Shown: positions 33-61,561, counted from the first letter of the stretch. The stretch is DNA of 64,000 bases from a virus (IMGVR_UViG_3300037471_000830), one strand, 5' to 3'. Numbers and translations are program-made. The notes: generated by a model not told the origin, from the sequence alone.

Positions 33-257
33 ATGACCACTGGCCGCCCCAAGTGGCTCGCCGAGCACTTCTCGGCGCTCATCGAAGCCAACGGCCAGGT
101 GGAGCGCAGCACGTTGCGTCAAGCGATGGAGCAGCGCATGCAGTGGAACAAGCAGACCGCCGACCCGCACACCTCCATGTTCGTGGCGATCGGGGTGGGC
201 CTTCGGCTGGTGGACTTCGACGGCGCAACGATAACGATCCGAAAGGACCAGGCATGA
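33..257 (+). CDS. hypothetical protein (frame is open upstream to the window edge; true start may lie outside)
   Basis: ORF track 33..257; ATGA overlap with next ORF; GC-rich coding-like composition. Confidence 0.4.
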   Translation: MTTGRPKWLAEHFSALIEANGQVERSTLRQAMEQRMQWNKQTADPHTSMFVAIGVGLRLVDFDGATITIRKDQA

Positions 258-463
258 GTCAGCCGAAACGGCCCTGGCGCAATGTGATGGGGTACGTCCG
301 CATCCCTGCGCTCTCCGGCACAGACGCCCGCGCCTACAACACCCTGGAGTGCGGCCACCGCACCGGAACATTCGTCGGCAGCGCCGCCATCGACGCCAAG
401 CACGCCAAGCGTCGGCGCTGTCCCGCGTGCGGCACCCAATCCCAAGATCAAAAGGAAACGTGA
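254..463 (+). CDS. small zinc-ribbon-like protein (Cys/His pairs CGH...CPAC)
   Basis: In-frame ATG at 254 inside ORF 53..463; start-stop coupling on both sides (ATGA). Confidence 0.4.
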   Translation: MSQPKRPWRNVMGYVRIPALSGTDARAYNTLECGHRTGTFVGSAAIDAKHAKRRRCPACGTQSQDQKET

Positions 464-3400
464 TGGAAATCTCGACCGCGCTGTCCGTGCGCAGTGACTT
501 CTCCGTGGGAGAGTCCATGCTGCAAGTGGACAAGATGGTGAGCAAGGCGCAGGAGCTGGGCCTCAAGACCCTGGGCCTGGTGGACACCAACCTGGGCGCG
601 ATGGTGGACTTCTCCAACCGCTGCAAGAAGGCGGGCATTCGTCCTGTGATTGGCTTTCGCGTCCGCGTTGCGCACGATCCGACTTACCGAAAACCCTCCA
701 AGAGCAGCGGCATCAAGCCGGTGGACAACCCGACGTGGATCGCCAAGGTCTATCTGAAGTCGGCCGCTGCGCTGGAGTCCGTGATGGCTTTGCTGACCAA
801 GGCCAACAGCCCCGAATACTTCTACTTCCACCCGCGCATCGGGCTCGATGACCTGATGACACTCAAGGACGTGGTGATCACGACCGGCGACCAGAACAGC
901 CTGTTCGCGACCAAGGACCACATGCCGGCGCTGCACCGGCTCATGGCGACCTTTGCCAACGACGTGTTCGTGGAGCTGTCGCCGGTGAACACGCCACTGC
1001 ACGACCGCATCAACCTGCTGGCGGCGCAAGCCGCGCGCTCCACGGGCCTGAACACCCTGGTGGGCTTGCCCGTGATGTACGCCAGCCGCGAAGACGCGGA
1101 CAGCCGCGACGTGCTGGCGGCCGTGACCACGAACACCAAGATGGACGCGCCGTTCCGCAGCGTGCCCTACGTCCGCGACTTCTCGCTGGAGAGCGCCAAG
1201 AAGCTCACCACGGCCGTCAAGGAGACCGTGTTGCGCCTGGGCCGGCTGGACCGTACCAACGTCGCGAAGGAGTTCGTTGAAGGACTCGCCAACATTGAGC
1301 GCGTCGTGGCGCGATGCGGCTACACCTTCGAGCGCCAGGAGGTCTCGCTGCCCAAGATGGCCGAGAACGAGTTTGACGCCTTGCAGCGCCTGTGCGTGCA
1401 GGGTTGGAACACGCGCTTCAAGCAGCCTGTGCTGGGTCACGTGCCGAGCGACCTGGGGCCGTACAAGGAGCGGCTGAAGTACGAGCTGGGCGTCCTGAAG
1501 AAGATGAACTTCTCCGGCTACTTCCTGCTGGTGGCCGACCTCGTGAAGTGGAGCAAGGACAACGGCATCCTGGTCGGCCCGGGACGCGGCTCCGTGGGCG
1601 GCTCGCTGGTGGCCTACCTGTGCGGCATCACGGACGTGGACCCGCTCCGGTTCAACCTGTTCTTCGAGCGTTTCATCAATCCTGACCGGATCGACCTGCC
1701 TGACGCCGACCTGGACTTCATGTCCTCGCGCCGGCACGAGGTCCAGGACTACCTCGTCGCCCGGTACGGGAAGGATCGCGTGGCGGGTATTTCCAACTAC
1801 GCTGCCCTGGGTCCGGCTTCCGCCATGCGTGACACCGGACGGGTGTTCGGGCTGCGCGACAGCGACCTCATGGCGACCAAGCTGGTCCCGAAGGAGCACG
1901 GCATCTCCACGCCGCTGGCGGAAGCCATCAAGGTGGTGCCGGAAATCGAGAAGTTCAGCGAGGACCATCCTGGCGTGTGGAACCACGCGCTCAAGCTTGA
2001 AGGCTCCATGCGCGCGTTTGGACGCCACGCGGCCGGCATCATCGTGGCGGGTGAGCCTGTGGTGAAGCGCGCGGTGCTGGAGACCCGCGACAAGGACGAG
2101 TCCATCCCTGCGGTGATTTGGGACAAGCGCGTGGTCGAGGATTGGGGCCTGATCAAGATGGACCTGCTGGGTCTCTCGACCCTGGACATCCTTGACATCG
2201 CCAAGCGGTACATCAAGAAGCGCCACGGGAAGGTGATCGACTACCTGCGCGTGCCGCTGGACGATCCGAAGGTGCTCGACGCCTTCGGGCGTGGCGAGAC
2301 CACCGGCGTCTTCCAGTTCGAGAGCCCTGGCATGCGCAAGCTCCTGCGCGATCTGCGCAAGGGTGGACCGCTGACCTTCGACGACATCACGGCCGCCACC
2401 GCCTTGTACCGCCCGGGTCCGATGGACTCCGGGATGATGCAGGACTTCGTGAACATCAAGCAGGGGGTGGACTCGCCGTACTACGAGCACCCCAACATGG
2501 AGCCCGCGCTGCGCGACACCTATGGCGTGATCGTGTACCAGGAACAGGTGATGCAGATCGCCCGCGACATTGCCGGCTACTCCATGTCCGGCGCTGACGC
2601 CCTGCGCAAGATCATGGGCAAGAAGGACAAGGAGAAGATGTCTGCGGAGCGCGAGACCTGGGTCAAGGGCTGTATGTCCACGTCCGGGCTCTCCGAGAGC
2701 GTGGCGGGCAACCTGTTCGACAAGATCGCCGCCTTCGCCGGCTACGGCTTCAACAAGAGCCACGCTTGCGAATACTCCATCATCTCCGTCTGGACGATGT
2801 GGCTGCGGGTGAACTACGCCGCCGAATACTTCGCCGCCTGCATGAGCATCGTGAAGGAGGAGAAGCTGCCGGGTCTGGTTTCCGACGCGCGCGAGGCGGG
2901 GATCGAAGTCCTGCCGCCCGACATCAACCTTTCAGGGGTCGAGTTCTCCATCCCCGACAGTGAGCATATCGTCGCGCCCTTCAGCGCCATGAAAGGGTGC
3001 AGCACTGCGACCGCTGCCCGAATCGTGGAGCTGCGCGAGCGCAACCGCGACTGGAAGCTGGTGCGGGTGAAGAAGAAGCGCGACGGCTCCACCGAGGACG
3101 TGTACGGCATGGACCTGGACACGCCGGTCAAGGGCCGCTTCGACTCCTTCAACGAGTTCTTGTGGACCTCCGAGCAGCCCGGCTCCAAGGTCAACGCCAA
3201 GGTGGTCGATGCTCTGCGCAAGGTGGGCGCCTTCGCGGGCGTGGACAGGAGCGAGCTGCCGGCCCGTCACCCCGACCGCCGCAAGGACCAGATGGAACTG
3301 CTGCCTGGTCTGATCATCGACACCCTGAAGGCGGATCGCACCACGGATGCCTCCGAGCCCTTCCTGCGCAAGAAGATTGTGGAGATCGTCCGCGACTACC

Positions 3401-3912
3401 GTGAATGCGATGGCTGCTCCCTGGCCGGCAATCCGCATCCATCCGTGCGCGTGAAGTCCAAGGTCAAGTTCATGGTGGTCTCGGACTGCCCGAGCTGGCC
3501 CGAGGAGAAGGCGGACAAGCTGCTGGAGGGCGACGGTGGCACCTTCGTCAAGAACGCCATCAAGAACGCAGGCTTGGAAGTCGGCGATGGCTACTACACC
3601 ACGCTGGTCAAGGCGAAGAAGACGGACAAGTTCCTCACCAACGAGCAACTCAACGGGTGCAGGAAGTTCCTCGACCGCGAGCTGGAGCTGATCAAGCCGC
3701 CCGCCATCGTGGCCCTGGGCTCCGCGTCGATACGCCGACTGCTGCCGGACGTGAAGGGCGGCACCGAGGAGCTGGCCGGCAAGGCGGTGTATGTGCCCGC
3801 TCTCGACGCCACGGTCATCTGTGGCATCAATCCGGCGCAGATCATCTTCAACGAGTCCAAGGGCGCCGTCCTGGACGCCATCTTTGAAAAGCTCGCCGAA
3901 GTCGTGCTCTGA
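463..3912 (+). CDS. dnaE: DNA polymerase III alpha-like (C-family, DnaE-type) replicative polymerase with N-terminal PHP domain and C-terminal uracil-DNA-glycosylase-like (family 4-like) domain
   Basis: PHP-like N-terminus (MEISTALSVRSDFS...), DnaE fingers motif FNKSHA..YS, GIEVLPPDIN segment, HhH-like region; last ~200 aa resemble UDG fold (VKFMVVSDCPSWPE ... CGINPAQI); start at ATG 463 with AAGGAAA RBS. Confidence 0.8.
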   Translation: MEISTALSVRSDFSVGESMLQVDKMVSKAQELGLKTLGLVDTNLGAMVDFSNRCKKAGIRPVIGFRVRVAHDPTYRKPSKSSGIKPVDNPTWIAKVYLKSAAALESVMALLTKANSPEYFYFHPRIGLDDLMTLKDVVITTGDQNSLFATKDHMPALHRLMATFANDVFVELSPVNTPLHDRINLLAAQAARSTGLNTLVGLPVMYASREDADSRDVLAAVTTNTKMDAPFRSVPYVRDFSLESAKKLTTAVKETVLRLGRLDRTNVAKEFVEGLANIERVVARCGYTFERQEVSLPKMAENEFDALQRLCVQGWNTRFKQPVLGHVPSDLGPYKERLKYELGVLKKMNFSGYFLLVADLVKWSKDNGILVGPGRGSVGGSLVAYLCGITDVDPLRFNLFFERFINPDRIDLPDADLDFMSSRRHEVQDYLVARYGKDRVAGISNYAALGPASAMRDTGRVFGLRDSDLMATKLVPKEHGISTPLAEAIKVVPEIEKFSEDHPGVWNHALKLEGSMRAFGRHAAGIIVAGEPVVKRAVLETRDKDESIPAVIWDKRVVEDWGLIKMDLLGLSTLDILDIAKRYIKKRHGKVIDYLRVPLDDPKVLDAFGRGETTGVFQFESPGMRKLLRDLRKGGPLTFDDITAATALYRPGPMDSGMMQDFVNIKQGVDSPYYEHPNMEPALRDTYGVIVYQEQVMQIARDIAGYSMSGADALRKIMGKKDKEKMSAERETWVKGCMSTSGLSESVAGNLFDKIAAFAGYGFNKSHACEYSIISVWTMWLRVNYAAEYFAACMSIVKEEKLPGLVSDAREAGIEVLPPDINLSGVEFSIPDSEHIVAPFSAMKGCSTATAARIVELRERNRDWKLVRVKKKRDGSTEDVYGMDLDTPVKGRFDSFNEFLWTSEQPGSKVNAKVVDALRKVGAFAGVDRSELPARHPDRRKDQMELLPGLIIDTLKADRTTDASEPFLRKKIVEIVRDYRECDGCSLAGNPHPSVRVKSKVKFMVVSDCPSWPEEKADKLLEGDGGTFVKNAIKNAGLEVGDGYYTTLVKAKKTDKFLTNEQLNGCRKFLDRELELIKPPAIVALGSASIRRLLPDVKGGTEELAGKAVYVPALDATVICGINPAQIIFNESKGAVLDAIFEKLAEVVL

Positions 3913-5149: not shown

Positions 5150-5965
5150 ATGGATTTCTCCAAGCTCAAGCAGACCGCCAAGCAACAAAAGGCCGCCCTC
5201 GCCAAGCGCGAGCGCAACCTGACCCTCAAGCCGGGCAGCCAGCGCATCGTCCTGATGCCCGGCTGGAGCCCCGAACAGCGCGAGGTCTTCTTCCACGCCT
5301 ACGGTGCCCACTACGTCAAGAACGCTGCTGGTGAAGTGCAGGCTTTCCTGCCCTGCCCGAACGCCTCGTTCGGCGAGCCGTGCCCGGTGTGCGATGCCGT
5401 TGCCACCGCGATCAAGAACTCGCCGAGCGACGAGATGACCGAGATGCTCAAGGAAGCCAAGTCCGGCAAGCGTTTCCTCATCAACGTGCTGGCCCTGGAC
5501 GGCGAGGAGCCCAACACGCCCAAGACCCTGGAAGTGCCGAAGGTGGTGTTCGAGAACATCGTCGGCCTGATGGAAGATTGGGGCGAGGCGATCTTCGATC
5601 CCGAAAACCCGACCATCATCTCCATCGAGAAGACCGGCAAGGGCCTGGGCACCCGCTACACCGTGCAGGTGTCGCCGAAGAAGCACAAGCTGCCGGCCGC
5701 CGCGCTGTCGCAGATTCCGAACCTGGAAGAAGCCGTTCGCGCCTACAGCGACGAGGACATCAAGCGCGCCCTGGGTGCGGTCCACGCCGCTGCGGGTCTG
5801 CTGCCGGCCGCTGATGTGCCTCGCACCGCGTCCACCGCTCCGCGCCTGGCTCACAGCCGGCCCGCCGATGTGGAAGACGCCAAGCCGGCTGTGAAGCCCG
5901 CTGCACCGTCGCTGGACGACGACCTGGACTCGCTGCTGGGCGACGACCTCGAACTGGCCGCCTGA
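5150..5965 (+). CDS. putative ssDNA-binding protein (T4 gp32-like architecture: Cys-rich metal site, acidic DDDLDSLLGDDLELAA C-terminal tail)
   Basis: CPNASFGEPCPVCD zinc-site-like motif, RFLINVL core, acidic tail typical of SSB partner-binding tails; sits in replication module. Confidence 0.5.
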   Translation: MDFSKLKQTAKQQKAALAKRERNLTLKPGSQRIVLMPGWSPEQREVFFHAYGAHYVKNAAGEVQAFLPCPNASFGEPCPVCDAVATAIKNSPSDEMTEMLKEAKSGKRFLINVLALDGEEPNTPKTLEVPKVVFENIVGLMEDWGEAIFDPENPTIISIEKTGKGLGTRYTVQVSPKKHKLPAAALSQIPNLEEAVRAYSDEDIKRALGAVHAAAGLLPAADVPRTASTAPRLAHSRPADVEDAKPAVKPAAPSLDDDLDSLLGDDLELAA

Positions 5966-5984: not shown

Positions 5985-6014
5985 AAAGGGCTGGCTTCGG
6001 TCAGCCCTTTTTCA
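5985..6014 (+). terminator. rho-independent terminator hairpin (AAGGGCTG-gcttcggt-CAGCCCTT + TTTTC)
   Basis: perfect 8-bp GC stem followed by T-run immediately after CDS 5150..5965. Confidence 0.6.
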
Positions 6015-6027
6015 TCCAGGAACTTGC

Positions 6028-6936
6028 ATGAGCAAACTCGGACTCATCGACGGTAATTCGGTGGGCTACGCCTCGAATTACGCCATGAAACTCACCAGTG
6101 GCGACCAGGAGACCCAGGCGGTATTCGGGTTCCTGCGCACACTGCGAGAAGTGGCTGTGACCTACCCGGACTACGGCCTGATAACGCTGTGGGATGGTCG
6201 CGCCACCTGGCGCTTCGATATTTATCCCGACTACAAGTCCAATCGGGAAGCCGACGCCAAGAAGGTCGCCTTCAAGGACTCCTACGTGTCGCAGCGTCCG
6301 TATATCCAGCGTTGCTTGCAGCACCTGGGCGTGCGCCAAATCACTGCGATGACGCATGAGGCGGACGACATGGGTGGACTGCTGGTGAGCAATCTGTCCA
6401 AGGTTCCGGGCTCGAAGATCACGGTCTTCACCGGCGACCAGGATTGGCTGCAATTCGTCAAGGAAAACGTGAGTTGGCGCGACCTGCGCGACGACAGCCG
6501 CCAGATCAACGCCAAGAACTTCCAGGAGAAAACGGGCTACGCCAACCCAATGGCATTCCTCGAAGGGAAATGCCTGATGGGCGACACGTCGGACGTGATC
6601 CCTGGCGTGGGCGGCGTGGGCGAAAAGCGCGCGAAGGAGCTGCTGGCGGAATTCGGGTCCGTGCGCACCTTCTGGAAGAAGGTCGAAGCCGGCGAGCACG
6701 TTCCGCGTCTTGCTTGGCAGAAAAACCTTGCGACCAAGGAAGCGAAGGCTGCGTTCCTGCGCAACCTGAAGCTCATGCAACTGATGAAGGTGCCCAAGCC
6801 AAACCGTGAGGATATTCGCGACATCCGTGGCGGCTTCGATAAAGAGGCGTTCGCGAATGTCTGCGAAGAACTCGCATTCACATCCATCCTCCGCACGCTC
6901 GACAAGTTTGTCGAACCCTTCCAACCGAAACACTAG
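6028..6936 (+). CDS. 5'-3' exonuclease / flap endonuclease (RNase H-like, PIN-5'nuclease family)
   Basis: conserved acidic clusters (IDGNS..., TGDQDWLQF, MGDTSDVIPGVGGVGEKRA HhH segment) typical of Pol I 5'-exo/T4 RNase H/T5 D15. Confidence 0.8.
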   Translation: MSKLGLIDGNSVGYASNYAMKLTSGDQETQAVFGFLRTLREVAVTYPDYGLITLWDGRATWRFDIYPDYKSNREADAKKVAFKDSYVSQRPYIQRCLQHLGVRQITAMTHEADDMGGLLVSNLSKVPGSKITVFTGDQDWLQFVKENVSWRDLRDDSRQINAKNFQEKTGYANPMAFLEGKCLMGDTSDVIPGVGGVGEKRAKELLAEFGSVRTFWKKVEAGEHVPRLAWQKNLATKEAKAAFLRNLKLMQLMKVPKPNREDIRDIRGGFDKEAFANVCEELAFTSILRTLDKFVEPFQPKH

Positions 6937-6947
6937 GATAAAACATC

Positions 6948-7955
6948 GTGAGTCTCGAATCCTTCCTCAAAGAGCTGGACGAAGCAGTTGGCGAAAATGC
7001 CGACAACCAAATGGTGACGCAGTGGATTAACACCGGGAATCCGCTGCTCAACAAGATTATTTCCGGCAAGCACGACGGCGGCCTGCCCTACGGTCGGCTG
7101 CTGGAGATGTTCGGTGAGTCCAGCACGGGCAAGACGGCTCTGGCAACGCAGTGGATGGTGGAGGCGCAGCGCATGGGCGGCGTCGCTGGCTTCATTGATT
7201 GGGAGCGCAGCTTCAACGTGGAAATGGCGCGCGGCTTCGGGCTGAACGACAAGCGTCCGCACTGGTTCTACTTCAAGCCGAAGACTTGGGAGGAGGGTAA
7301 CAAGATCGCAACCAAGGCATGTCAGGCAATCCGCAAGCACAAGGGCATCCCCGACGACGCGCCGATCCTGTTCGTGTTCGACTCCATCGCCGCCGCTCTG
7401 CCCAAGTCGATGGCGGAAAAGGAGATCGACGAATACTCCATGAATGACACCACGGCGCTGGCTCGCGTGACCTCCACCACGCTCAAGGCCCAAGCGCAAT
7501 GGGCGGAAGAATTCAACGCCACCTTCCTGTACCTGAACCAGATTCGCCTGAAGCCGGGCGTGGTGTACGGCGATCCGCGGACCACCCCGGGCGGCAAGGC
7601 AATGGAGTATTACGCTTCCGCCCGCCTGGCCCTGGGTCGCCAGAAGATCATGGAGACCAAGGACGGCGAGAAGGAATTTGTGGGGCAGCAGATTTCGGTC
7701 CAATGCACCAAGTCCAAGTTCACCAAGCCGTTCAAGGAAACCAACCTGCGCATGTCCTTCAATGACGACGGCGTGGCGAGTTTCGACATGGCAACGTCCC
7801 TGCTGGAGCACGCGATCGAGCACAAGCTCCTGACCTCGGGCGGCCCGCGCGTAACCTGGACGGACGGCAAGGCGTATTTCAAGAAGCAATTGGCGCAGAA
7901 GATCAACGATGAAGGACTGATGCCTGAATTGGTCGCCATCGTGAAAGCTGCATAA
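6948..7955 (+). CDS. uvsX: RecA-family recombinase (UvsX-like)
   Basis: Walker A GESSTGKT, RecA-like core, GTG start; located between FEN and Mre11/Rad50 genes. Confidence 0.8.
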   Translation: MSLESFLKELDEAVGENADNQMVTQWINTGNPLLNKIISGKHDGGLPYGRLLEMFGESSTGKTALATQWMVEAQRMGGVAGFIDWERSFNVEMARGFGLNDKRPHWFYFKPKTWEEGNKIATKACQAIRKHKGIPDDAPILFVFDSIAAALPKSMAEKEIDEYSMNDTTALARVTSTTLKAQAQWAEEFNATFLYLNQIRLKPGVVYGDPRTTPGGKAMEYYASARLALGRQKIMETKDGEKEFVGQQISVQCTKSKFTKPFKETNLRMSFNDDGVASFDMATSLLEHAIEHKLLTSGGPRVTWTDGKAYFKKQLAQKINDEGLMPELVAIVKAA

Positions 7956-8375: not shown

Positions 8376-8384
8376 GGAGAGAAC

Positions 8385-9232: not shown

Positions 9233-9507
9233 CCAATCCTGAACTCATGCTGCACAATTCAAATCAGTCATCACTGAGCAACAAAGACGCAATGATCTAT
9301 TCAAAGGACAAGTCCATCAACACCACGGTGCGATGCCTGCTACGCGCGGGTTGGAGTGTGAAGTCGCGCAAGCGCCATTTAACGATCACGGACGGTCGCT
9401 ACACCGTTTCCGTGCCGACCTCGCCGAGCGACCACCGCACCGCGCTCAACTGGCACTCGCAAATCCAGCGCACGACCGGCGTGAACTTAGCCGCTCTCGG
9501 ATGCTGA
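9229..9507 (+). CDS. small hypothetical protein with weak HicA/YcfA-like pattern (GW..KRH..TVSVP)
   Basis: ATGA overlap with upstream gene; in-frame within ORF 8656..9507; family call is weak. Confidence 0.35.
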   Translation: MTNPELMLHNSNQSSLSNKDAMIYSKDKSINTTVRCLLRAGWSVKSRKRHLTITDGRYTVSVPTSPSDHRTALNWHSQIQRTTGVNLAALGC

Positions 9508-9917
9508 TCGCCACCGCTACTTTGTGCCTGGCTGTCAACGTGTACCAGGAGGCCCGTGGGGAACCCATCCCGGGCCAGTACGCGGTGGCGTTCGTGACGA
9601 TGCAGCGAGCCAAGCAGGACCGCAAGAAGGTCTGCAAGGCGGTGTTCGAGCCCTGGCAGTTCTCATGGACCGTCAAGGGCGCAAGGAAAGAGGGCATCGG
9701 CTGGCGAGTCGATACGCCCAAAGAGAAGGATGCGTGGAAAACGGCGCAGATCGTCGCCGACCAAGTGCTTGCGGGCCGGATACCGAACTGGCTGGGTCCG
9801 ATGACGCACTACCACGCGAGGGAAGTCAAGCCACGGTGGCGGCTGGCGATGACGCGCATCAAGACCATTGGCCGCCACATCTTTTACCGATCGAATCAGT
9901 CAGGAGTGACATCATGA
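9501..9917 (+). CDS. SleB/Hydrolase_2-family cell wall hydrolase (candidate endolysin)
   Basis: motif NVYQEARGEP...AVA.V..QRAKQ...WQFSWT matches SleB-type amidase signature; ATG 9501 in frame of ORF 9333..9917. Confidence 0.7.
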   Translation: MLIATATLCLAVNVYQEARGEPIPGQYAVAFVTMQRAKQDRKKVCKAVFEPWQFSWTVKGARKEGIGWRVDTPKEKDAWKTAQIVADQVLAGRIPNWLGPMTHYHAREVKPRWRLAMTRIKTIGRHIFYRSNQSGVTS

Positions 9918-10975
9918 TTTTTGGGGCTCTTTCGGACTCGCACAACCATTCGTGGTCAGCGTTCGCGTCCACCAACAAGGAGGGCGTGAATACGCGCTTG
10001 CAGGAAATCCTCGACGAGACCCTGCGCTGCGCTCAGGAGGTCAAGGACAAGGGCGGCAGGCTCATCCTGCACACGGGCGACCTGTTTCATGTGCGCGGCT
10101 CCGTCGCGCCCTCGGTCCTCAACCCGACGCTGGGCGTGTACCGCCACATCGTCAAGGACATGAGCATGGAAGTGTTCATGCTCGCCGGCAATCACGACCT
10201 GGAGGGACGCGAAGCCGAGCGCGTGGGCAACGCCATGACGGCGCTGGAGGAGGTCGGCGTGCATGTGATCCACGAGCCCTGGGCGGTCGATGCCTACGGG
10301 CTCGCGTTCATCCCGTGGATGCCGTCCGTGGCGGAGCTCAAGAAGCAGATCGAGGCGACACCGCGCCGCAAGGACGAAACGATCCTGCTGCTGCACGCGC
10401 CCATCGACGGCGTGATTCCGGGACTGCCTGACCACGGGCTCGATCCGGCCTGGCTGGCGGGCCTGGGCTTCAAGGCGATCTTCTCCGGCCATTACCACAA
10501 CCACCGCCACATGGGCGGCAATGTCTACAGCGTTGGCGCGCTCACGCACCAGACCTGGAGCGACGTGGGCAGCAAGGCGGGCTTCCTGATCGTGGACAGC
10601 GGCGCCGCTGGCGTCGATGTGACCTGGCGCTGCACCCGCGCGCCGCAGTTCGTGGACATTGGTGCGGGCATGAGCGAAGCGGACATGATGGCTGTCGCGG
10701 ACGGCAACTACGTGCGCGCCCGCATGTCCACGGGCAACAAGTCCGAAATCGAAGGGATGCGCGAGTTCCTGCTGGGCGCCGGCGCCAAGGGCGTCACGAT
10801 CCTGGCCGAGCCGCCCAAGACGACCGTGGCGCGCAGCGAGAGTGCGGTGAAGGCCGGCGCCACGATGGAGGCGTCCGTTTCCGACTACATCGACCGCAGC
10901 GCCTTCGACAGCAAGGAGAAGGTCAAGGCGCTGTGCCAGGACATCCTTCGCGAAGCGCAAGAGGTTGAGGCGTGA
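9914..10975 (+). CDS. sbcD: Mre11/SbcD-family nuclease (T4 gp47-like)
   Basis: calcineurin-like phosphoesterase motifs (SDSHN, HTGDLFH, GNHD, GHYH); directly upstream of Rad50-like gene. Confidence 0.8.
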   Translation: MIFGALSDSHNHSWSAFASTNKEGVNTRLQEILDETLRCAQEVKDKGGRLILHTGDLFHVRGSVAPSVLNPTLGVYRHIVKDMSMEVFMLAGNHDLEGREAERVGNAMTALEEVGVHVIHEPWAVDAYGLAFIPWMPSVAELKKQIEATPRRKDETILLLHAPIDGVIPGLPDHGLDPAWLAGLGFKAIFSGHYHNHRHMGGNVYSVGALTHQTWSDVGSKAGFLIVDSGAAGVDVTWRCTRAPQFVDIGAGMSEADMMAVADGNYVRARMSTGNKSEIEGMREFLLGAGAKGVTILAEPPKTTVARSESAVKAGATMEASVSDYIDRSAFDSKEKVKALCQDILREAQEVEA

Positions 10976-11388
10976 GCGGCGTCATCTGCCCCTACTGCGA
11001 GAAGCCGGCCAAGCTGGTGACTGGCGCGCAGATGTACCCGTACCGCCCGGACCTCGCCGATCTTCGCTTTTGGGACTGCCGGCCCTGCGACGCCTATGTC
11101 GGCTGTCACAAGAACGGCAGCGGTTATGGCGACGGTACGCGCCCGCTGGGGCGGCTTGCCAACGCCGAACTGCGCGATGCCAAACAAATGGCGCACCGCT
11201 TCTTCGATCAACTCTGGAAGTCTGGTGGGATGAAGCGTGGCAGCGCCTACGCCTGGTTGGCGGACGAGCTTCGTATTCCCAAGCAGGACTGTCACATTGG
11301 CATGTTCGACGTGCAGCGGTGCAAGGATGTGGTCAAGGCAGTGCAGCGTCGGTACGCAGGCATTCGAGCCAAAGGAGAACAAGCATGA
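10972..11388 (+). CDS. zinc-finger protein (CPYC...CRPC) inserted between sbcD-like and sbcC-like genes
   Basis: GTG start overlapping previous stop; Cys pairs; ORF track. Confidence 0.5.
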   Translation: MSGVICPYCEKPAKLVTGAQMYPYRPDLADLRFWDCRPCDAYVGCHKNGSGYGDGTRPLGRLANAELRDAKQMAHRFFDQLWKSGGMKRGSAYAWLADELRIPKQDCHIGMFDVQRCKDVVKAVQRRYAGIRAKGEQA

Positions 11389-13319
11389 ATTTCGAGCTGG
11401 TCAAGATCAAGAACTTCCTCACGCTGGCGGACGCCGAGCTGGGTCTGGCGGATCGCGGGCTGGTGCTCATCCAGGGCGCCAACCAGGATGACCCCAGCGC
11501 CAAGTCCAACGGGGCGGGTAAGTCGTCCATGGTGGATGCGATCTGCTGGGCGCTCTATGGCGTCACGGCCCGAGGCGTCACCGGCGACGCGGTGATCAAC
11601 AAGGTGGCGGGCAAGGGCTGCTGGGTGGAGCTGACGCTGCGCGACGACAAGACCGTGATCATGATCCGTCGCCACCGCAAAGACCCGACGCACAAGAACG
11701 CCTTGATGCTGTGGGTGGACGAGAAGGACTGCACCAAGGGCACCGACAAGGAGACCCAGGACGCCATCCTCAAGCTGGTGGGGTGCAGCCAGGATGTCTT
11801 CATGGCGAGCGTGTACGCGGGCCAAGAGCGCATGCCCGACCTGCCAGGCATGACGGACAAGCAGTTGAAGCTGCTGATCGAGGAGGCGGCCGGCGTCGAG
11901 CGGCTGGAGGCGGCCTACACCATCGCCCGCAGCAAACTCACCGTCGCCAAGAACGACCTGACGCTCAAGCAGGGCCTGCGTGCGTCACAAGCCACCACGC
12001 TGGCAAGCGAGGAGGCGTCGTTGCTCACCGCGCAGTCGAACTTCGCCGGCTTCGAGGACTCGCGCAAGGGCTTGGCCGAGAGCTACACCGGCAGCGTCAA
12101 GACGATCGGCGCCGAAGCCCTGGAGCTGGGTCGCAAGATCAAGACAGCGGACAAGCCGGCGCTGCTCAAGCGCCAGGGCGAGCTGGACACGGCTCTTGAT
12201 GGACACAAGGAGCGGGAGTGCAAGCGCGAGGAGCTGCGCGCTGCGGTTGTGGCAGCTGAGCGCGAACATGACCGGCGCACGCGCGAGGAGGAGAACTTCC
12301 TGACTTCCGCGCGTCGTCTCAAGCACGCCTATGAGCATCCCGAGGAGGCTGTGAAGGGCAACTGCGAGGCGTGCGGCAAGCCGCACGATGCGTCGGACGT
12401 GGAGAGCTACCGCACGCACATCAAGGGCCTGCTGGTCGAGGCAGTGAAGCAGGCAAAGGAGGCGAAGGCTAAGACCGCCAACGCCTACGAGGCGCTGGTG
12501 ACGGCGCAGAAGCGGCTGGACGAGTATGTCGCGGCCATGCCGGACATGAGCGCGCTGCTGGTGGAGCAGGGCGGCATTCGCACCAAGCTGGGCGAGGTCG
12601 AAAGCCTGGAGCGCAACTTCGTCCTCAAGCGCAAGGACATGGAACGCGAGAAGGCGAAGGCCGACCAGGCGCTCACCGAGCCCAATCCGCACGCCGCCAC
12701 CGTGAAGCTGCTGACCGAGCGAGTGAGCAAGATCGGCGACGCCATCACGAAGCTCAACACCGAAATCATCGAGCAGGAAGCTGCGGTCCAAGTCCACGAG
12801 CTTGCGTCCAAGGTCTTCGGGCCGGCAGGGGTGCGGGCACACATTCTGGACACCGTGACGCCCTACCTGAACGAGCGGACCAAGGAATACCTGGGCGCGC
12901 TGTCGGACGGGAACATCCACGCCACGTGGTCCACGCTCACCAAGAGCGCCAAGGGCGAGGCGAAGGAGAAGTTCTCCATCGAGGTCATCAACGAGAAGGG
13001 CGCCGAGTCCTTCGATGGTCTCAGCGGCGGGGAGAAGCGCAAGGTGCGCCTGGCGTGCGCGCTGGCCCTGCAAGACTTGGTGGCGTCCCGTGCGGCCAAG
13101 CCGATTTCCCTGTTCGTCGGCGACGAGATTGACGACGCTCTGGACGAAGCCGGTCTGGAGCGGTTGATGGGCATCCTGGAGCGCAAGGCGCGCGACCGGG
13201 GGACCGTGCTCATCATCAGCCACAACTCGCTTGCGGATTGGGTGGACCAGATCATCACCGTAACCAAGAAGGGTGGCGTGTCCACCATCGACGGCGCAAC
13301 CGGCGTGGGAGCCTGGTAA
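11385..13319 (+). CDS. sbcC: Rad50/SbcC-family ATPase (T4 gp46-like)
   Basis: N-terminal Walker A GANQDDPSAKSNGAGKSS, long coiled-coil with CxxC zinc hook (CEACGKPHD), C-terminal signature LSGGEKRKV and Walker B; ATG 11385 chosen over longer ORF. Confidence 0.85.
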   Translation: MNFELVKIKNFLTLADAELGLADRGLVLIQGANQDDPSAKSNGAGKSSMVDAICWALYGVTARGVTGDAVINKVAGKGCWVELTLRDDKTVIMIRRHRKDPTHKNALMLWVDEKDCTKGTDKETQDAILKLVGCSQDVFMASVYAGQERMPDLPGMTDKQLKLLIEEAAGVERLEAAYTIARSKLTVAKNDLTLKQGLRASQATTLASEEASLLTAQSNFAGFEDSRKGLAESYTGSVKTIGAEALELGRKIKTADKPALLKRQGELDTALDGHKERECKREELRAAVVAAEREHDRRTREEENFLTSARRLKHAYEHPEEAVKGNCEACGKPHDASDVESYRTHIKGLLVEAVKQAKEAKAKTANAYEALVTAQKRLDEYVAAMPDMSALLVEQGGIRTKLGEVESLERNFVLKRKDMEREKAKADQALTEPNPHAATVKLLTERVSKIGDAITKLNTEIIEQEAAVQVHELASKVFGPAGVRAHILDTVTPYLNERTKEYLGALSDGNIHATWSTLTKSAKGEAKEKFSIEVINEKGAESFDGLSGGEKRKVRLACALALQDLVASRAAKPISLFVGDEIDDALDEAGLERLMGILERKARDRGTVLIISHNSLADWVDQIITVTKKGGVSTIDGATGVGAW

Positions 13320-14257: not shown

Positions 14258-14260
14258 GCC

Positions 14261-14833
14261 ATGAAAATCAAGCTGGTGGGCTTTGACCCCGCAGTCCGCA
14301 ACCTGGGTATCGCCTGGGCCACTTACAACACCGACACGGGCGAACTGGATGTAGAGAAGTTGCGCCTGGTGAAGACGGAAAACCAGGCCGGCAAGACTGT
14401 GCGCAAAAGCTCCGACGATATGCGACGCGGTAGGATTCTTCACGAAGCCATGACCGATTGCTGTCGCACCGCAGCCATCGCCATCGCAGAGATACCGGAA
14501 GGCACACAGTCGGCGCGCGGCGCCATGTCCAACGGCATCTGTATCGGTGTGCTGGTGGGTTGCCCCATTCCGTTGATCGAAGTGGCGCCCAACGACACAA
14601 AGTTGGCGGCGGTAGGCATCAAGACCGCTACCAAGGGCGAGATGATTGCCTGGGCTGTAGCGAAGTACCCAGACCTCAACTGGCTGCGCCAGAAGCGCAA
14701 GGGCGTCATGGAGCTGATCAATGACAACGAGCACCTGGCCGACGCCATTGGCGTGCTGCACGCCGGCGTGAAGACCGCTGAGTTCAAGGCGGCGGTGGGC
14801 TTTTTCCGTTCCGCAGCAGTCAGTCACTCATGA
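14261..14833 (+). CDS. RuvC-like Holliday junction resolvase
   Basis: KLVGFDPAVRNLGIAWA (RuvC GIDPG.R.TG-like) and C-terminal DA.GV motif; in recombination module. Confidence 0.65.
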   Translation: MKIKLVGFDPAVRNLGIAWATYNTDTGELDVEKLRLVKTENQAGKTVRKSSDDMRRGRILHEAMTDCCRTAAIAIAEIPEGTQSARGAMSNGICIGVLVGCPIPLIEVAPNDTKLAAVGIKTATKGEMIAWAVAKYPDLNWLRQKRKGVMELINDNEHLADAIGVLHAGVKTAEFKAAVGFFRSAAVSHS

Positions 14834-15336: not shown

Positions 15337-15430
15337 GCGCAAATTTCATCTTCCGCACATAGTCAGTCACGACTGAGCTAAATTAGAATCTCGCCCCCGA
15401 TCAACCCGCAACACACTCAAGGAAGTACCT

Positions 15431-17704
15431 GTGCAAGTTTTCAAGCGCGATGGCTCTGTGGAGCCCTTCGACATGGAGAAGATCGAACGTCTGACCGAAT
15501 TCGCCACCCGCGAACTGAAAGTCGATGTCTCCAAGCTCAAGCGCGAAACCAAGCTCCTGATCTTCGACGGCATGAAGACGGAGGACATCTTCAAGGCGCA
15601 AGTCAGCGCCGCTGCTGGTCTGATTTCACAGGCTGAGCCGGACTTCACCTACGTGGCGGCCCGCTACCTCCTGTGCGACCTCTACAAGCGCGTCACGGGC
15701 AAGCCTGGCTACCACCACATCGCCACCGTGATCGACGCCGGCGTGAAGGACGGCCGCTACAGCAAGCGCATGGCGACCACCTTCGACCTGGACGCGATCA
15801 ACGCCGTCATCAAGCCCGAGCGCGACTTCCAGTTCCAATACTTCGGTCTCCAGAACGTCGTGGACCGCTACCTGATGCGGCTGACCACCGGCAAGATCAT
15901 CGAACTGCCGCAGCAGTTCCTGATGCGCGTGGCGATGGGCCTGGCGCTCAACGAAGCGGACGCGACCGGCAAGGCCATCGAGTTCTACGAACTGCTGTCC
16001 AGCTTCGACGGCATGGACTCCACGCCCACGCTGTTCAACTCCGGCACGGTGCGCAGCCAGCTCTCGTCCTGCTACCTCAACATCGTCGCCGACCAGATCA
16101 GCGCCGAAATCGAAGAAGGCGAGAACCGCTGGGCCTCCATCTACGGGACCATCGAGGAGTCGGCCCGCCTGTCCAAGTACGCGGGCGGCATCGGAACCTC
16201 GTGGAACCGCGTGCGCGGCGCGGGCTCGCTGATCAAAGGCACCAACGGCAAGTCCAGCGGCGTCATCCCGTACATCAAGGTGTGGAACGACACGGCGGTG
16301 GCGGTGAACCAGGGCGGCAAGCGCAAGGGCTCCTTTGCTCCGTACCTGGAGCCCTGGCACCCCGACTTCTGGAACTTCTGCGAGCTGAAGAAGGAGTTCG
16401 GCGACGACCGGCTGCGCGCCCATGACGTGTACCCCGCCTCCTGGCTGCCGGACCTGTTCATGCGCCGCGTGGAAGCTGGCGGCATGTGGTCCACCTTCGA
16501 CCCGCATGCTCACCCGGAGCTCCACGAGCTGTATGGCGAGGAGTTCGAGGAGCGGTACATCGAGCTGGAGAGCGAAGGCAAGTTCATGTCGCAGCGGCCG
16601 GCGATGGAGGTCTGGAAGCACATCCTGACCAACCTGTTCGAGACCGGCCATCCGTGGATCACGTTCAAGGACGAGTGCAACCGCCGCAACCCGCAGTCGC
16701 ACGCCGGCGTGGTGCATAGCTCCAACCTCTGCACGGAAATCACGCTCAACACGTCCGACGACGAAACGGCGGTGTGCAACCTGGGCAGCGTCAACCTCGC
16801 CAACCACGTCAAGGACGGCGAGATGGACTACGACAAGCTGCGCAGGACCGTCCGCACCATGGTTCGGATGCTGGACAACGTGATCGACCTCAACTACTAC
16901 CCGAGCGACCGCGCCAAGCACGCCAACCTGCGTCACCGCGCCATCGGCCTGGGCGTCATGGGCTACACCGAGGCGATGGTGGCTTGTGGCATTGATTGGG
17001 AGTCCACCGAGCACCTGGATTGGGCCGACGAACTGTTCGAGCGTTGGAGCTACTACGCCATCGAGGCGTCGTGCGACCTGGCCGCCGAGCGCGGCTCCTA
17101 CCAGACCTTCGAGGGCTCGAAGTGGAGCGAAGGCATCCTGCCTATCGACACTGCTCGCGAGCAGGACCAGACGATGCCCTGGCATGTCCTGCGCGACAAG
17201 GTGCAGCGCGTCGGGATGCGCAACTCCAACGTGATGGCCCTGGCCCCGACCGCGACCATCTCCATCATCGTCGGCACCACGCCTTGCATCGAGGCGCCGT
17301 TTGAGCTGGAGAGCATCGAGGGCAACATTTCCGGCACCTTCAAGGTCATCGACCCGTGCCTGCGCTACGGCCGTCCTGAACTGGTCAAGACCGTGTGGCA
17401 GATCGCGCCGGTGTGGGTGATCGAGGCTGCGGCGGTGCGTCAGAAGTGGATCGACCAGTCGCAGTCCGTGAACGTCTTCGCCAAGTGGGGCACCAAGGGC
17501 CGTGAGCTGGCGGAGATTTACATCCGAGCCTGGAAGCGCGGCCTGAAGACCACCTACTACCTGCGCACGCAGAGCAAGGAAGTCCAGGACTCCAAGCTCA
17601 AGGCGGTGGAGCAGCGCACCCAGCAGACCGCAGCCCCGGATGCGCTGGACCAGGCCGTCAACCTGTGCAGCATCGACAACCCTGGCTGCGAGAGCTGCCA
17701 ATAA
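15431..17704 (+). CDS. nrdA: ribonucleotide reductase class I large subunit
   Basis: N-terminal ATP cone (VFKRDGSVEPFDMEKI), catalytic motifs (SNLCTEI, CNLGS), C-terminal CESCQ tail; GTG start with AAGGAAG RBS. Confidence 0.9.
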   Translation: MQVFKRDGSVEPFDMEKIERLTEFATRELKVDVSKLKRETKLLIFDGMKTEDIFKAQVSAAAGLISQAEPDFTYVAARYLLCDLYKRVTGKPGYHHIATVIDAGVKDGRYSKRMATTFDLDAINAVIKPERDFQFQYFGLQNVVDRYLMRLTTGKIIELPQQFLMRVAMGLALNEADATGKAIEFYELLSSFDGMDSTPTLFNSGTVRSQLSSCYLNIVADQISAEIEEGENRWASIYGTIEESARLSKYAGGIGTSWNRVRGAGSLIKGTNGKSSGVIPYIKVWNDTAVAVNQGGKRKGSFAPYLEPWHPDFWNFCELKKEFGDDRLRAHDVYPASWLPDLFMRRVEAGGMWSTFDPHAHPELHELYGEEFEERYIELESEGKFMSQRPAMEVWKHILTNLFETGHPWITFKDECNRRNPQSHAGVVHSSNLCTEITLNTSDDETAVCNLGSVNLANHVKDGEMDYDKLRRTVRTMVRMLDNVIDLNYYPSDRAKHANLRHRAIGLGVMGYTEAMVACGIDWESTEHLDWADELFERWSYYAIEASCDLAAERGSYQTFEGSKWSEGILPIDTAREQDQTMPWHVLRDKVQRVGMRNSNVMALAPTATISIIVGTTPCIEAPFELESIEGNISGTFKVIDPCLRYGRPELVKTVWQIAPVWVIEAAAVRQKWIDQSQSVNVFAKWGTKGRELAEIYIRAWKRGLKTTYYLRTQSKEVQDSKLKAVEQRTQQTAAPDALDQAVNLCSIDNPGCESCQ

Positions 17705-17727
17705 TCATCAGTCACTACTGAGAAATG

Positions 17728-25555: not shown

Positions 25556-26092
25556 ATGAAAATCGCAGGGCTCGACCTGGAAACCACCGGGTTCGACGCA
25601 TCCACCGGGGACCGCATCGTCGAAGTGGCACTGGTCACTTGCACGATGGACGAGCATGGCCGCCTTACGCCGGTCGATGAGTACGTCCGGCGCGTGAACC
25701 CCGAGCGTCCCATTCCCGCCGAAGCCACCAACGTCCACGGGATCACCTACGAGCAGGTTGCCGCCTGTCCGAAGTGGATCGCGGTAGCGCCCGAGGTCCA
25801 GCGCCGGCTGCGGGGCCTCGACAAGATCATCATCCACAACGAGGACTTCGACGCCCCGTTCCTGGCGCATGAGCTGTTGCGGATGGAACTGGAGCTGCCC
25901 GAGGTCCAGACCTACTGCACGATGAAGAACGCCAGGTGGGCCACCTACGATGGCAAGTTCCCCAACCTTGGTGAGCTGGCTTTCGCCCTGGGCGTGGAGT
26001 TCGACCCGAGCAAGGCGCACGGTGCGGAGTACGACGTTCTGAAAATGCTGGAGTGCTACGCAGAAGGGCGGCGGAGGGGCTTCTATGAATGA
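25556..26092 (+). CDS. dnaQ: DnaQ-like 3'-5' proofreading exonuclease (DEDDh)
   Basis: Exo I LDLETTG, Exo II HNEDFDAPFL, Exo III HGAEYD motifs. Confidence 0.8.
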   Translation: MKIAGLDLETTGFDASTGDRIVEVALVTCTMDEHGRLTPVDEYVRRVNPERPIPAEATNVHGITYEQVAACPKWIAVAPEVQRRLRGLDKIIIHNEDFDAPFLAHELLRMELELPEVQTYCTMKNARWATYDGKFPNLGELAFALGVEFDPSKAHGAEYDVLKMLECYAEGRRRGFYE

Positions 26093-29663: not shown

Positions 29664-29725
29664 TCGCAACAATTCAACCCGTGCCCTGAGAAGCACATTG
29701 CAAACCTGAAACTCAGAGGATCAAT

Positions 29726-30811
29726 ATGACCACTGCCATTGTCTCCGCTCAAACTGTTTTCTTCCAAAAGGGCACCACCTTCACGCTGGGCGACGCCTCC
29801 GCCATGAACGCGAAGGAGAAGCTGCCGGGCGGCGTCTACACCGTGGACTTCAATCCGCTGCTGGGCGGCTACCACCTCCAGCAAGGCGAGAGCTTCATCC
29901 TGCCGTCCAAGCTGTACGGCGACACCACCAAGCATGCCGCGCGCATCTTCGACACCTTCGAGGATCGTCCGTTCGGGACCGGCGTGCTGCTCGCGGGCCT
30001 GGCTGGCAGTGGCAAGACGATGCTGTCCAAGAAGCTCGGCATGATGGCGGTCGAGAACCACATGCCTGTCCTGCTGGTCAACAACGCCTACTGCGACGAC
30101 GCCTTCTTCCGCTTCATCCAGTCCATCGCACAGCCGAAGGTCGTGTTCTTCGACGAGTTCGAGAAGGTCTACGACGCCGATGACCAGTCCAAGATGCTGA
30201 CGCTGCTGGACGGCAACTACCCGTCCAAGACGCTGTATCTGCTGACCTGCAACGACAAGTGGCGCATCAACTCCTACATGCGCAACCGTCCTGGCCGGCT
30301 GTACTACTGCCTGGACTTCTCGGGTCTGGATCAGGCGTTCGTCACGGAATACTGTCTGGACAACCTCAAGAACAAGCTCCACATCGACAGCGTGTGTCGC
30401 GTGGCCGCCGCCTTCGCGGAGTTCAACTTCGACATGCTCAAGGCGATCGTCGAGGAAATGAACCGCTACGGCGAAACCGCGCAGGAAGTGCTCAAGATGC
30501 TGAACGTCAAGCCGGCCTATGAGGACGACTCCAACTTCGACGTGGCGGTGTTCAAGAACGGCAAGCCGTATGGCGACAAGCTGTCGCCCTCCGTCGTCAA
30601 CAAGAACCCGCTGATGGACCCGAGCCAGCATGTCGCCGTGTACTTCAAGCACAAGGAGACCGGCCGCATGCACGACTGCCAGGAGCTCAGCTTCGAGCAG
30701 GAGCACATGCTGCCCCTGGACCCGAAGGCTGGCGAGTTCCGCTACAAGATGGGCGACGTGGAGCTGGTTCTGACGCGCGCCAAGTCAAAGATGCTGGATT
30801 TCGCCTTCTAA
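29726..30811 (+). CDS. AAA+ ATPase (classical AAA clade: Walker A GLAGSGKT, Walker B VVFFDEFE, second region of homology NRPGRL)
   Basis: motifs read directly from translation. Confidence 0.7.
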   Translation: MTTAIVSAQTVFFQKGTTFTLGDASAMNAKEKLPGGVYTVDFNPLLGGYHLQQGESFILPSKLYGDTTKHAARIFDTFEDRPFGTGVLLAGLAGSGKTMLSKKLGMMAVENHMPVLLVNNAYCDDAFFRFIQSIAQPKVVFFDEFEKVYDADDQSKMLTLLDGNYPSKTLYLLTCNDKWRINSYMRNRPGRLYYCLDFSGLDQAFVTEYCLDNLKNKLHIDSVCRVAAAFAEFNFDMLKAIVEEMNRYGETAQEVLKMLNVKPAYEDDSNFDVAVFKNGKPYGDKLSPSVVNKNPLMDPSQHVAVYFKHKETGRMHDCQELSFEQEHMLPLDPKAGEFRYKMGDVELVLTRAKSKMLDFAF

Positions 30812-50796: not shown

Positions 50797-50810
50797 TGAC
50801 TTCTATAAGC

Positions 50811-58839: not shown

Positions 58840-58870
58840 CGCCTTTGTAAGTCATCACTGAGCTACAATC

Positions 58871-61488: not shown

Positions 61489-61561
61489 TGTCAGTCATCG
61501 GTGACTAAGAGCGACGTTAGCCTCCGAAGCAATCCACCCCAATCTGTAGAAGGACACTGAG

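Follow-up and report, generated by a model that had tools for sequence, protein, structure and literature searches.

A variant of the replicative polymerase DnaE in which a uracil-DNA glycosylase (UDG) domain (PF03167) stands in place of the oligonucleotide/oligosaccharide-binding (OB) domain and the C-terminal domain (CTD) has been described from Yersinia and Salmonella under the name 'DnaEX', in an account that consists of one sentence on domain content and holds no analysis of motifs, clamp motif or function (Timinskas et al., NAR 2014; PMC3919608). The C-terminus of viral C-family polymerases had been noted before to be unlike that of E. coli and one that 'may include different structural domains' (Kazlauskas & Venclovas 2011; PMC3201878). 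A 2026 survey of bacterial polymerases leaves UDG unmentioned, and no functional or structural study of a DnaE-UDG fusion was found in the literature searched. Here, we analyse the dnaE gene at positions 463 to 3,912 of IMGVR_UViG_3300037471_000830, a 64,000-nucleotide stretch of viral DNA referred to throughout as the window, whose product ends in a UDG fold. The Yersinia and Salmonella genes of the 2014 report are SSU5-type phage-plasmid genes and full-length homologs of the window gene, and the novelty implied by the initial annotation of this locus was overstated: the fusion defines a large phage family, already reported by Timinskas et al. (PMC3919608). The architecture is known and common, and the window adds a divergent member.

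Phage PolA-UDG enzymes, like the window protein, carry a family-4-type UDG fold covalently joined to a replicative polymerase, although their polymerase belongs to family A rather than family C and their UDG domain is N-terminal rather than C-terminal. The SPO1-like and SP15-like enzymes are active and read template deoxyuridine (dU) ahead of the fork, whereas the N4-like and T5-like ones are inactive (Czernecki 2023, PMC10201439; Missoury 2025, bioRxiv 10.1101/2025.03.26.645540; Kazlauskas & Venclovas 2011, PMC3201878). It was proposed in 2011 that the UDG domains of the SPO1 and T5 PolA enzymes act as intrinsic processivity factors (PMC3201878). The window protein has lost catalytic residues as the N4-like enzymes have, and it differs from the SP15-like enzymes, which excise template dU ahead of the fork, in that its uracil pocket is gone. 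A UDG fold is also a structural component of the poxvirus holoenzyme (PolB, A20/A22, UDG D4/E4), although there it is a separate, family-1-type and catalytically active subunit and the polymerase is of the B family.

The window gene encodes a C-family (DnaE-type) DNA polymerase. All four C-family domains, namely PHP, Pol3 core, fingers and helix-hairpin-helix (HhH), exceed their Pfam cutoffs (Table 1), TIGR00594 is matched at 700 bits against a cutoff of 434, and PHROG 405 is matched from aa 6 to 1148 (profile positions 46-1172 of 1190; 1032 bits). The call of a PHP-DnaE rather than a B-family polymerase in the initial annotation is therefore borne out by the Pfam and NCBIfam domain matches. 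A continuous plus-strand open reading frame (ORF) spans 349..3912, interrupted neither by an intein nor by a homing-endonuclease split, and the ATG at 463 is the likely start because an AAGGA Shine-Dalgarno sequence precedes it by 6 nt, a small ORF in front of it stops in a TGATG overlap with the dnaE start, and a protein begun at this ATG lines up with E. coli DnaE and with phage relatives from residue 1 onward. The PHP, palm, thumb, fingers and (HhH)2 regions align with E. coli Pol III alpha (DnaE1) over aa 1 to ~950, with the (HhH)2 region falling on alpha residues ~808-905. D414 and D416 (PDADLDF) and D567 (KMDLLGL) align with E. coli D401 and D403 (PDFDVDF) and D555 (KFDFLGL), the established catalytic aspartates. 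The H-x-H metal motif of the PHP domain is not kept (ALSVRSDFS versus HLRVHSDYS in E. coli). A Lys-rich β-hairpin inserted in the HhH domain distinguishes the window protein from the SSU5-type polymerases; it is confined in our alignments to the window's clade and one further homolog (P0073), and its strands lie at residues 134-141 and 147-153 of the AlphaFold2 model described below, in a block with pLDDT values of 95-97.

The likeness to E. coli alpha ends before the C-terminus. All NCBIfam DnaE profile alignments stop at about aa 865, near position 850 of the ~1146-long profiles; NF004226, the E. coli-type DnaE1 equivalog, scores 755 bits against a cutoff of 1002, with its alignment ending at position 852 of 1146. 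In the pairwise alignment with E. coli alpha, homology is lost just after window residue 950, and the OB fold and tau-binding domain of the E. coli protein have no counterpart. An AlphaFold2 model of aa 731-1149, built from a 54-sequence alignment (mean pLDDT 90.4), contains no OB-like β-barrel. A residual OB/tau tail was accordingly rejected, and the replacement of the canonical tail that had been proposed for this gene holds: the C-terminus gives no alignment to DnaE OB or tau-binding domains, and the assignment to a UDG fold stands.

Four lines of comparison place the last ~175-200 residues in the family-4 UDG fold, in agreement with the earlier description of the C-terminal 200 aa as a degenerate member of that family. 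Pfam PF03167 (UDG) is matched over aa 1001-1144 at 30.0 bits, above its gathering cutoff of 24.3. NCBIfam family-4 UDG profiles match aa 974-1147 with E values of 1e-11 to 1e-12, below their curated cutoffs (TIGR00758, 43.6 bits versus 125.3; NF040953, 46.6 bits versus 250). When the last 286 aa were compared with the PDB by phmmer, the S. tokodaii enzyme 4zbx was recovered (E 6.5e-9) along with T. maritima 1vk2 and 1l9g and T. thermophilus 1ui0, with UdgX matching more weakly. Foldseek, run against the PDB, aligned the last ~185 model residues to 1l9g, 1vk2, 4zby and 1ui0 with target-normalised TM scores of 0.81-0.84 and root-mean-square deviations (rmsd) of 1.9-2.4 Å; the matches to 1l9g, 1vk2 and 1ui1 had an E value of 3e-12 and target-normalised TM scores of 0.83-0.84, which places the domain in the UDG superfamily fold, an α/β/α arrangement whose parallel sheet is four-stranded. 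UdgX entries followed (TM 0.72-0.82, rmsd 2.1-3.3 Å), and the UDG domain of the phiLo family-A polymerase (9qhs) was also among the matches. The front of the model matches the Pol III alpha structures 2hpi, 4iqj and 5fkv. That the protein is a DnaE whose OB and tau-binding domains have been replaced by a UDG fold is in our view practically certain.

While the fold is kept, the uracil pocket has been remodelled. In family-4 UDGs and UdgX, motif A reads GE(A/G)PG, the Asn of a TN(A)V segment and the motif-B His hydrogen-bond uracil, and the Arg of motif B, HPS(S/A)(L/V)(L/V)R, touches the DNA backbone (PMC10359453). The window domain shares with these enzymes (1l9g/1vk2, 4zbx, 1ui0 and 6ajo) the α/β fold, the CxxC and the fourth Cys, but GE(A/G)PG has become SDCPS, the TN(A)V Asn has become Thr, and HPS..R has become NPAQIIF. 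The substitutions quoted in the initial annotation were found where it had placed them, SDCPS aligning to GEAPG and NPAQ to HPAA/HPSP; in the window's motif A, S-D1008-C-P-S-W, just the acid (as Asp) and the Pro remain of GE(A/G)PG. Residues were counted over the window protein and its 74 close homologs (n = 75). The motif-A acid, canonically Glu, is D1008 in the window and Asp in 74/74, and the third position of the motif, canonically Ala or Gly, is C1009 (Cys in 64/75). L1021 takes the place of the stacking Phe (Leu 51, Met 16), and T1047 that of the uracil-reading Asn, a position at which Asn occurs in 0/75 (Thr 64, Ala 6, Ser 4, Gly 1). The third Fe-S Cys, canonical in 'VKC', is A1051 (Cys in 0/75), the motif-B His is N1123 (Asn 69, Ser 3, Thr 1, His 1), and the motif-B Arg is F1129 (Phe in 69).

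These losses extend well beyond the close homologs. They recur in SSU5, nickie, Rhizobium phage RHph_X66 and Stenotrophomonas phage ANB28, and a search of 1.84 billion representative proteins found that DnaE-attached copies, fused or split, nearly all lack the Phe, Asn, third Cys and His; standalone UDGs of ~180-220 aa, at the weak end of that search, showed the canonical CC.(D/E)FNCCH pattern. In a balanced set of 11 lineages, entropy at the Phe-, Asn- and His-equivalent sites ranges from 1.2 to 1.9 bits, and the median for the domain is 1.79. Depending on lineage, motif A takes the form SDCPSW, LDNANG, LDGPSY, SDAPGN or TDAATK, and the Asn-equivalent position is Thr, Gly, Ser or Ala. In the same set D1008, K1050, K1053, K1098 and core structural residues never vary, and K1056 is missing from a single sequence of the 11. 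As far as these alignments speak, the Phe-, Asn- and His-equivalent positions are under no special constraint, which is how a domain retained for its fold and surface, not for a uracil-specific pocket, would be expected to look. Two DnaE fusions are less altered: P0190 (1840 aa, including inteins) has four Cys and the motif-B His and scores 73 bits to PF03167, and P0203 (1131 aa) keeps the Glu, the Asn and four Cys. Their near-canonical residues suggest that an active family-4 UDG may have been captured first and remodelled later.

The four Cys ligands of the family-4 [4Fe-4S] cluster are not all present in the window protein. C982, C985 and C1066 are retained, and where the third ligand is replaced by Ala a co-conserved His, H992, is found instead. 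C982, C985, H992 and C1066 (nt ~3406-3660) co-occur in 71 of the 75 sequences; in the other four, between two and four of these residues are missing, always including C982. A Cys3-His ligand set in place of the classical Cys4, forming a putative metal or cluster site, is therefore an attractive inference. The set is kept in the window protein and nickie and gone in SSU5, RHph_X66 and ANB28; because whole lineages lack it, it cannot be essential to whatever function the family shares.

Directly upstream of the UDG fold, between it and the HhH domain, lies a conserved block, RRKDQMELLPGLIIDxxKADR (aa 939-959). Proteins that bind the bacterial β sliding clamp commonly do so through a Q-L-[SD]-L-F-like consensus. 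A pentapeptide of this kind, QMELL, is found here, and Q943-MELL aligns exactly on Q920-ADMF (residues 920-924), the internal motif by which E. coli alpha binds the β clamp, so that the Q-x-x-(L/M)-(F/L) position is common to the two proteins; QADMF served as the reference motif for a phage DnaE in the earlier survey by Kazlauskas & Venclovas 2011 (PMC3201878). Within the linker, Q943 is conserved in 67/68 sequences, L946 in 67/69 and Leu or Met at 947 in 72/72. Q943 and L946 are invariant in all 11 lineage sequences, including SSU5, nickie, RHph_X66 and ANB28, and the SSU5-type polymerase shares with the window both this QxEL(L/M) motif and the pocket losses. The pattern Q..[LMFI][LMF] occurs in 63 of 93 representatives with enough upstream sequence, and most of the others carry near variants such as QIEFIPGL.

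A phage-encoded clamp was not found. Pfam and PHROG scans of ~45 ORFs revealed no clamp of gp45 or β type and no clamp loader. E. coli DnaN, used as a phmmer query on every ORF of the window, of a relative (L002) and of 43-kb annotated stretches of SSU5 and nickie, gave no match (best E 0.94), and these SSU5 and nickie stretches showed no clamp loader either. The sole AAA+ match, at 29690..30811, is to a generic ATPase PHROG, with a weak clamp-loader score (E 5e-7), and no clamp-type motifs were seen at the C-termini of the other replication proteins. Because no phage clamp was found, the polymerase might dock on the β clamp of its host, a proposal to which we give even odds.

The reading that we prefer, at a rough probability of 60%, is that the UDG fold has ceased to recognise uracil and now has a DNA-binding or architectural role in a replicative DnaE that has kept its clamp position. 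The domain would be inactive as a uracil glycosylase and, by analogy, would take the usual place of the OB domain at the template strand. It keeps the invariant Asp and the invariant lysines of the loop that replaces the family-4 'CRPPxNR' segment, which we take, from UDG structures, to be a DNA-contacting loop. Processivity would come from the host β clamp, bound by way of QxELL, and proofreading would be supplied in trans by a DnaQ-like exonuclease encoded at 25556..26092. Of the 'structural or uracil-sensing' roles that the initial annotation had suggested for the domain, the structural one is favoured and the uracil-sensing one is not, because the residues that contact uracil are all replaced and their positions are weakly conserved. 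That uracil recognition has been lost while the domain remains under strong constraint is a testable hypothesis.

Several observations weigh against this proposal. The place of the motif-A acid is held by D1008 without exception across lineages, which would fit retained catalysis as well, and a catalytic reading survives chiefly on this account. Some glycosylases lack the canonical His or Asp, for example the family-2 Mug/TDG enzymes with GINPG and MPSSSAR (PMC10359453), so that missing motifs are no proof of inactivity. P0190 and P0203 keep near-canonical residues; the ancestral fusion was probably active, and an altered activity may persist. The placement of the domain relative to the template strand is drawn by analogy. 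As for the clamp, the QxELL motif is absent from P0079, P0190 and P0203, it is part of a conserved stretch of 20 residues, more than clamp peptides typically call for, and this stretch is partly helical in the AlphaFold2 model, while the clamp negative covers 64 kb of a genome that extends in part outside the window.

Some of these points feed an alternative in which the domain is an enzyme or base sensor of changed specificity, tethered near the template entry. It would act on some base that is not canonical uracil, for instance a modified pyrimidine or a deaminated purine, either by flipping it out and excising it or by stalling there, with D1008 as the catalytic acid and with a pocket enlarged by the changes Asn to Thr/Ser/Gly, Phe to Leu/Met/Gly and His to Asn/Ser, in the manner of the co-replicative template scanning of the SP15-like PolA-UDG enzymes. 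We consider this unlikely, since the pocket positions differ by lineage although the specificity pocket is usually the best-conserved part of an enzyme, a Phe takes the place of the DNA-contacting motif-B Arg, no base-modification pathway was identified in the window, and the score to the NCBIfam family-4 profile is well under its cutoff. It nevertheless draws on more than the invariance of D1008 in all lineages and the near-canonical fusions: the fold is fully kept (rmsd ~2 Å), the pocket substitutions run toward smaller residues, the active UDG of SP15-like and SPO1-like PolA reads dU ahead of the fork, and family-2 UDGs function without the canonical His. ThyX-like, MazG-like and thymidylate-kinase-like proteins of the same phage also show an investment in control of the pyrimidine pool. 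A more specific form, in which D1008, the enlarged pocket and the Cys3-His site make up a base-scanning module, placed after the clamp motif at the site of contact between the OB domain of cellular DnaE and the single-stranded template, that recognises or excises a non-uracil base ahead of a C-family replicase, is a long shot; if it were true, template read-ahead by an attached UDG fold would be convergent among viral replicases of families A, B and C.

The OB and tau-binding domains mediate replisome coupling in E. coli Pol III, and it is their place that the UDG fold takes. No tau or clamp-loader gene was found in the window scans, the poxvirus UDG is a structural holoenzyme subunit that links the polymerase to A20 and the helicase-primase, and many proteins of this phage share an acidic-aromatic tail resembling a docking peptide. 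A protein-protein platform that replaces the tau-binding domain and receives a DnaB-type helicase, SSB, the DnaQ-like exonuclease or others could be drawn from these facts, yet it seems distinctly unlikely: no partner was identified, lysines of the loop replacing 'CRPPxNR' make up most of the invariant residues, which suggests contacts with nucleic acid and not with protein, and such a platform would be compatible with a DNA-binding role in any case. Very nearly negligible is the chance that the domain is a decaying, functionless remnant of an active UDG fusion. Although the canonical catalytic residues are lost, as are the Fe-S cysteines in several lineages, the domain is full length in ~128 clusters at 50% identity, fused and split, from phages of hosts ranging from Enterobacteria to Rhizobium, with many invariant positions, a high-confidence predicted fold and no truncation in complete genes.

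The distribution of the fusion was examined by homology search. By tblastn, the alignment to SSU5 spans aa 6-1148 (36% identity), and identity to Rhizobium, Pseudomonas and Stenotrophomonas phages is 41-43%; at least 30 listed phage records align through residue 1147-1148, so that comparison with DnaE-carrying phages establishes full-length homology. Identity to any phage in the August 2025 collection does not exceed 43%, and the C-terminal 284 aa are 82% identical to a 419-aa split C-part from a metagenome fragment. A search with the UDG domain alone returned 128 clusters at 50% identity (E <= 1e-10), in which the gene is either fused or interrupted by a homing endonuclease. The window, with its terminase, portal and capsid genes, is phage genomic DNA and comes from a ~110-kb tailed phage of the SSU5, nickie and RHEph10-type group. 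DnaEX, also annotated as SSU5_052 'DNA polymerase III alpha subunit' and contained in PHROG 405, has the same PHP-Pol3-(HhH)2-UDG (PF03167) layout and gene neighbourhood as the window gene. Gene order downstream of dnaE is the same in a 110-kb metagenomic contig at 69% identity, and SSU5 and nickie have largely the same gene set with some differences in order. In SSU5 and nickie, a DnaB-type helicase, DnaG primase, ligase and CobS/CobT-like ATPases are encoded upstream of dnaE, a region whose equivalent here falls before position 1 of the window.

In most close relatives, and in one SSU5-like Klebsiella phage (vB_KpnS_p4727), dnaE is split into two ORFs by a free-standing HNH gene (NUMOD4 plus HNH_3). 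The split site is the junction of fingers and HhH domains, corresponding to window aa ~738-741 (nt ~2674-2685). The N-part gains a tail of ~47 aa (LEDGTIMVVHRATKFDCVDGVERTIEEAI...) and the C-part a head of ~14 aa (MKIKSVKVLD...). Distant lineages share these tail and head peptides as protein sequence, so that the splits yield two true polypeptides; the peptides may serve in reassembly and move with the endonuclease cassette. A group I intron was rejected as the cause of the splits, with no Rfam match in L002 or in the Klebsiella phage (L009) and with tail and head conserved as protein, and so was a split intein, given just 47 plus 14 extra residues and neither Cys1, His-Asn nor a +1 nucleophile. 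Another homolog (P0159) carries an intein with a LAGLIDADG domain (aa 726-1133) at this same junction, which is a hotspot for selfish elements, and P0190 has an intein in the palm (aa ~367-763).

The remaining replication and recombination genes of the window are collected in Table 1. The initial annotation had described a T4-like replisome with a separate DnaQ-type exonuclease. The recombination and nucleotide-metabolism genes do resemble those of T4, but no clamp or clamp loader accompanies them and the phage groups with SSU5, nickie and RHEph10-type phages. The exonuclease is confirmed by its Pfam RNase_T match and by intact DEDDh motifs (DLETTG, HNEDFD and HGAEYD). E. coli likewise encodes its DnaQ-type exonuclease separately from alpha, and the degenerate PHP H-x-H together with the separate DnaQ-like gene suggests that proofreading may be performed in trans as in E. 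coli, in which case the PHP domain could be non-catalytic and act as a dock for the separate proofreader.

Table 1. Coordinates of the polymerase gene, its domains and other features of the window; split dnaE loci are numbered on the relatives named.
Feature	Position (nt)	Strand	Residues, evidence or remarks
DnaE-type (C-family) DNA polymerase coding sequence with C-terminal UDG-like domain	463..3912	+	1149 aa plus stop; ORF, start context, Pfam/PHROG/NCBIfam
PHP domain	484..882	+	aa 8-140; Pfam PF02811, E 9e-14
Pol III alpha catalytic core, DNA_pol3_alpha	1378..2172	+	aa 306-570; Pfam PF07733, E 1.5e-74
Fingers domain	2179..2676	+	aa 573-738; Pfam PF17657, E 1.2e-56
(HhH)2, equivalent of the β-binding domain	2899..3252	+	aa 813 to ~930; Pfam HHH_6 aa 813-865
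Lys-rich β-hairpin insertion in HhH domain	3052..3111	+	aa 864-883, WKLVRVKKKRDGSTEDVYG
Conserved linker motif RRKDQMELLPGL	3277..3312	+	aa 939-950; Q943-MELL, candidate β-sliding-clamp-binding motif
Family-4 UDG-fold domain, remodelled pocket	3385..3909	+	aa ~975-1149; Pfam, NCBIfam, PDB phmmer, AlphaFold2/Foldseek
Conserved ORF phrog_4969	3996-5006	+	directly downstream of dnaE
gp32-like single-stranded DNA-binding protein (SSB)	5150..5965	+	window ORF
Flap endonuclease (FEN)	5986..6936		window ORF
RecA/UvsX-like recombinase	6942..7955		window ORF
Mre11-like and Rad50-like proteins	~9491..13319		window ORFs
RuvC-like resolvase	14258..14833		window ORF
Ribonucleotide reductase (RNR) large subunit	15377..17704		window ORF
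DnaQ-type DEDDh 3'-5' exonuclease	25556..26092	+	178 aa; Pfam RNase_T, E 2.9e-26
SF2 helicase, weak UvsW_N match	49183..50802	-	window ORF
Terminase	57466..58839		window ORF
Portal	58862..60520		window ORF
Capsid protein	61550..62479		window ORF
ORFs with acidic-aromatic tail	8376-8870, 10851-13319, 13133-14257, 14782-15336, 17547-19136, 30900-31490	+	
ORFs with acidic-aromatic tail, continued	32507-33193, 36196-36684, 41017-41784, 41138-41476, 41745-42050	+	
Split dnaE loci in relatives	L001 691-2636; L002 5084-9272; L003 333-2122; L009 289-4544		L009, vB_KpnS_p4727

The genes next to dnaE were also inspected. The small upstream ORF (254-463, plus strand) encodes 69 aa with a zinc-ribbon-like C-x-H...C-P-A-C pattern and is translationally coupled on both sides, by ATGA with the ORF before it and by TGATG with dnaE; it has no Pfam match and no obvious conservation upstream of dnaE in relatives. 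Downstream of dnaE, the phrog_4969 protein has an N-terminal half rich in Ala, Pro and Glu and a C-terminal half predicted to be helical; a 311-aa ORF occupies its position after dnaE in L002, and it could be a replisome or recombination accessory. The gp32-like SSB carries a long acidic terminal tail (...DDDLDSLLGDDLELAA), the usual partner-recruiting feature of phage SSBs. An ExoX-like_C protein and an SPFH protein are encoded further downstream. ThyX-like (partial Thy1 match), MazG-like pyrophosphatase and thymidylate-kinase-like P-loop proteins are clustered at 20967-24110 (plus strand), which indicates control of the pyrimidine pool; the window ORFs scanned included no standalone canonical UDG, Ugi or dUTPase.

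At least 10 coding-like plus-strand ORFs share a related acidic-aromatic C-terminal tail, with ends such as ...RYADWGGF, ...TYEDFGSF, ...SVDAW, ...GNDAW, ...GADFASW, ...DYGSDW, ...NYSAWGEF and ...NYEAWGEF. A pattern for this tail, drawn up post hoc, matches 8 of 89 coding-like ORFs and 2 of 809 other ORFs, and similar tails occur in homologs from L002 (...SWGEW) and SSU5 (...TWATW, twice). By its composition the tail looks like a docking peptide for some hub, in the way of SSB C-terminal tails. Coding in the window is nearly all on the plus strand, the SF2/UvsW-like helicase being the exception. Two ParB-like proteins with a ParB N-terminal domain (50775-51470 and 52088-53044, plus strand) lie near an ABC-type ATPase (53155-54258) and may point to a plasmid-like prophage lifestyle as in SSU5, or to nuclease or modification functions. 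No tRNA gene and no Rfam family at the gathering threshold was found in the whole window (1-64000).

UDG folds are attached to viral replicases in three major polymerase families, A (SPO1, SP15 and N4), B (poxviruses) and C (the DnaE-UDG group), and the C-family attachment is the sole one of the three without a functional or structural study. Carriers of DnaE-UDG include the SSU5-type phage-plasmids, which are common in clinical Salmonella, Klebsiella, E. coli and Yersinia. The analysis presented here turns a one-line published description into a set of hypotheses, in which uracil recognition has been lost under constraint, a clamp-type motif lies directly upstream of the domain, and a Cys3-His set stands in for Cys4. 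If the UDG fold is indeed a processivity or template-handling element in a DnaE replisome that lacks a clamp loader, it would show how a bacterial-type replicase can be pared down in a phage.

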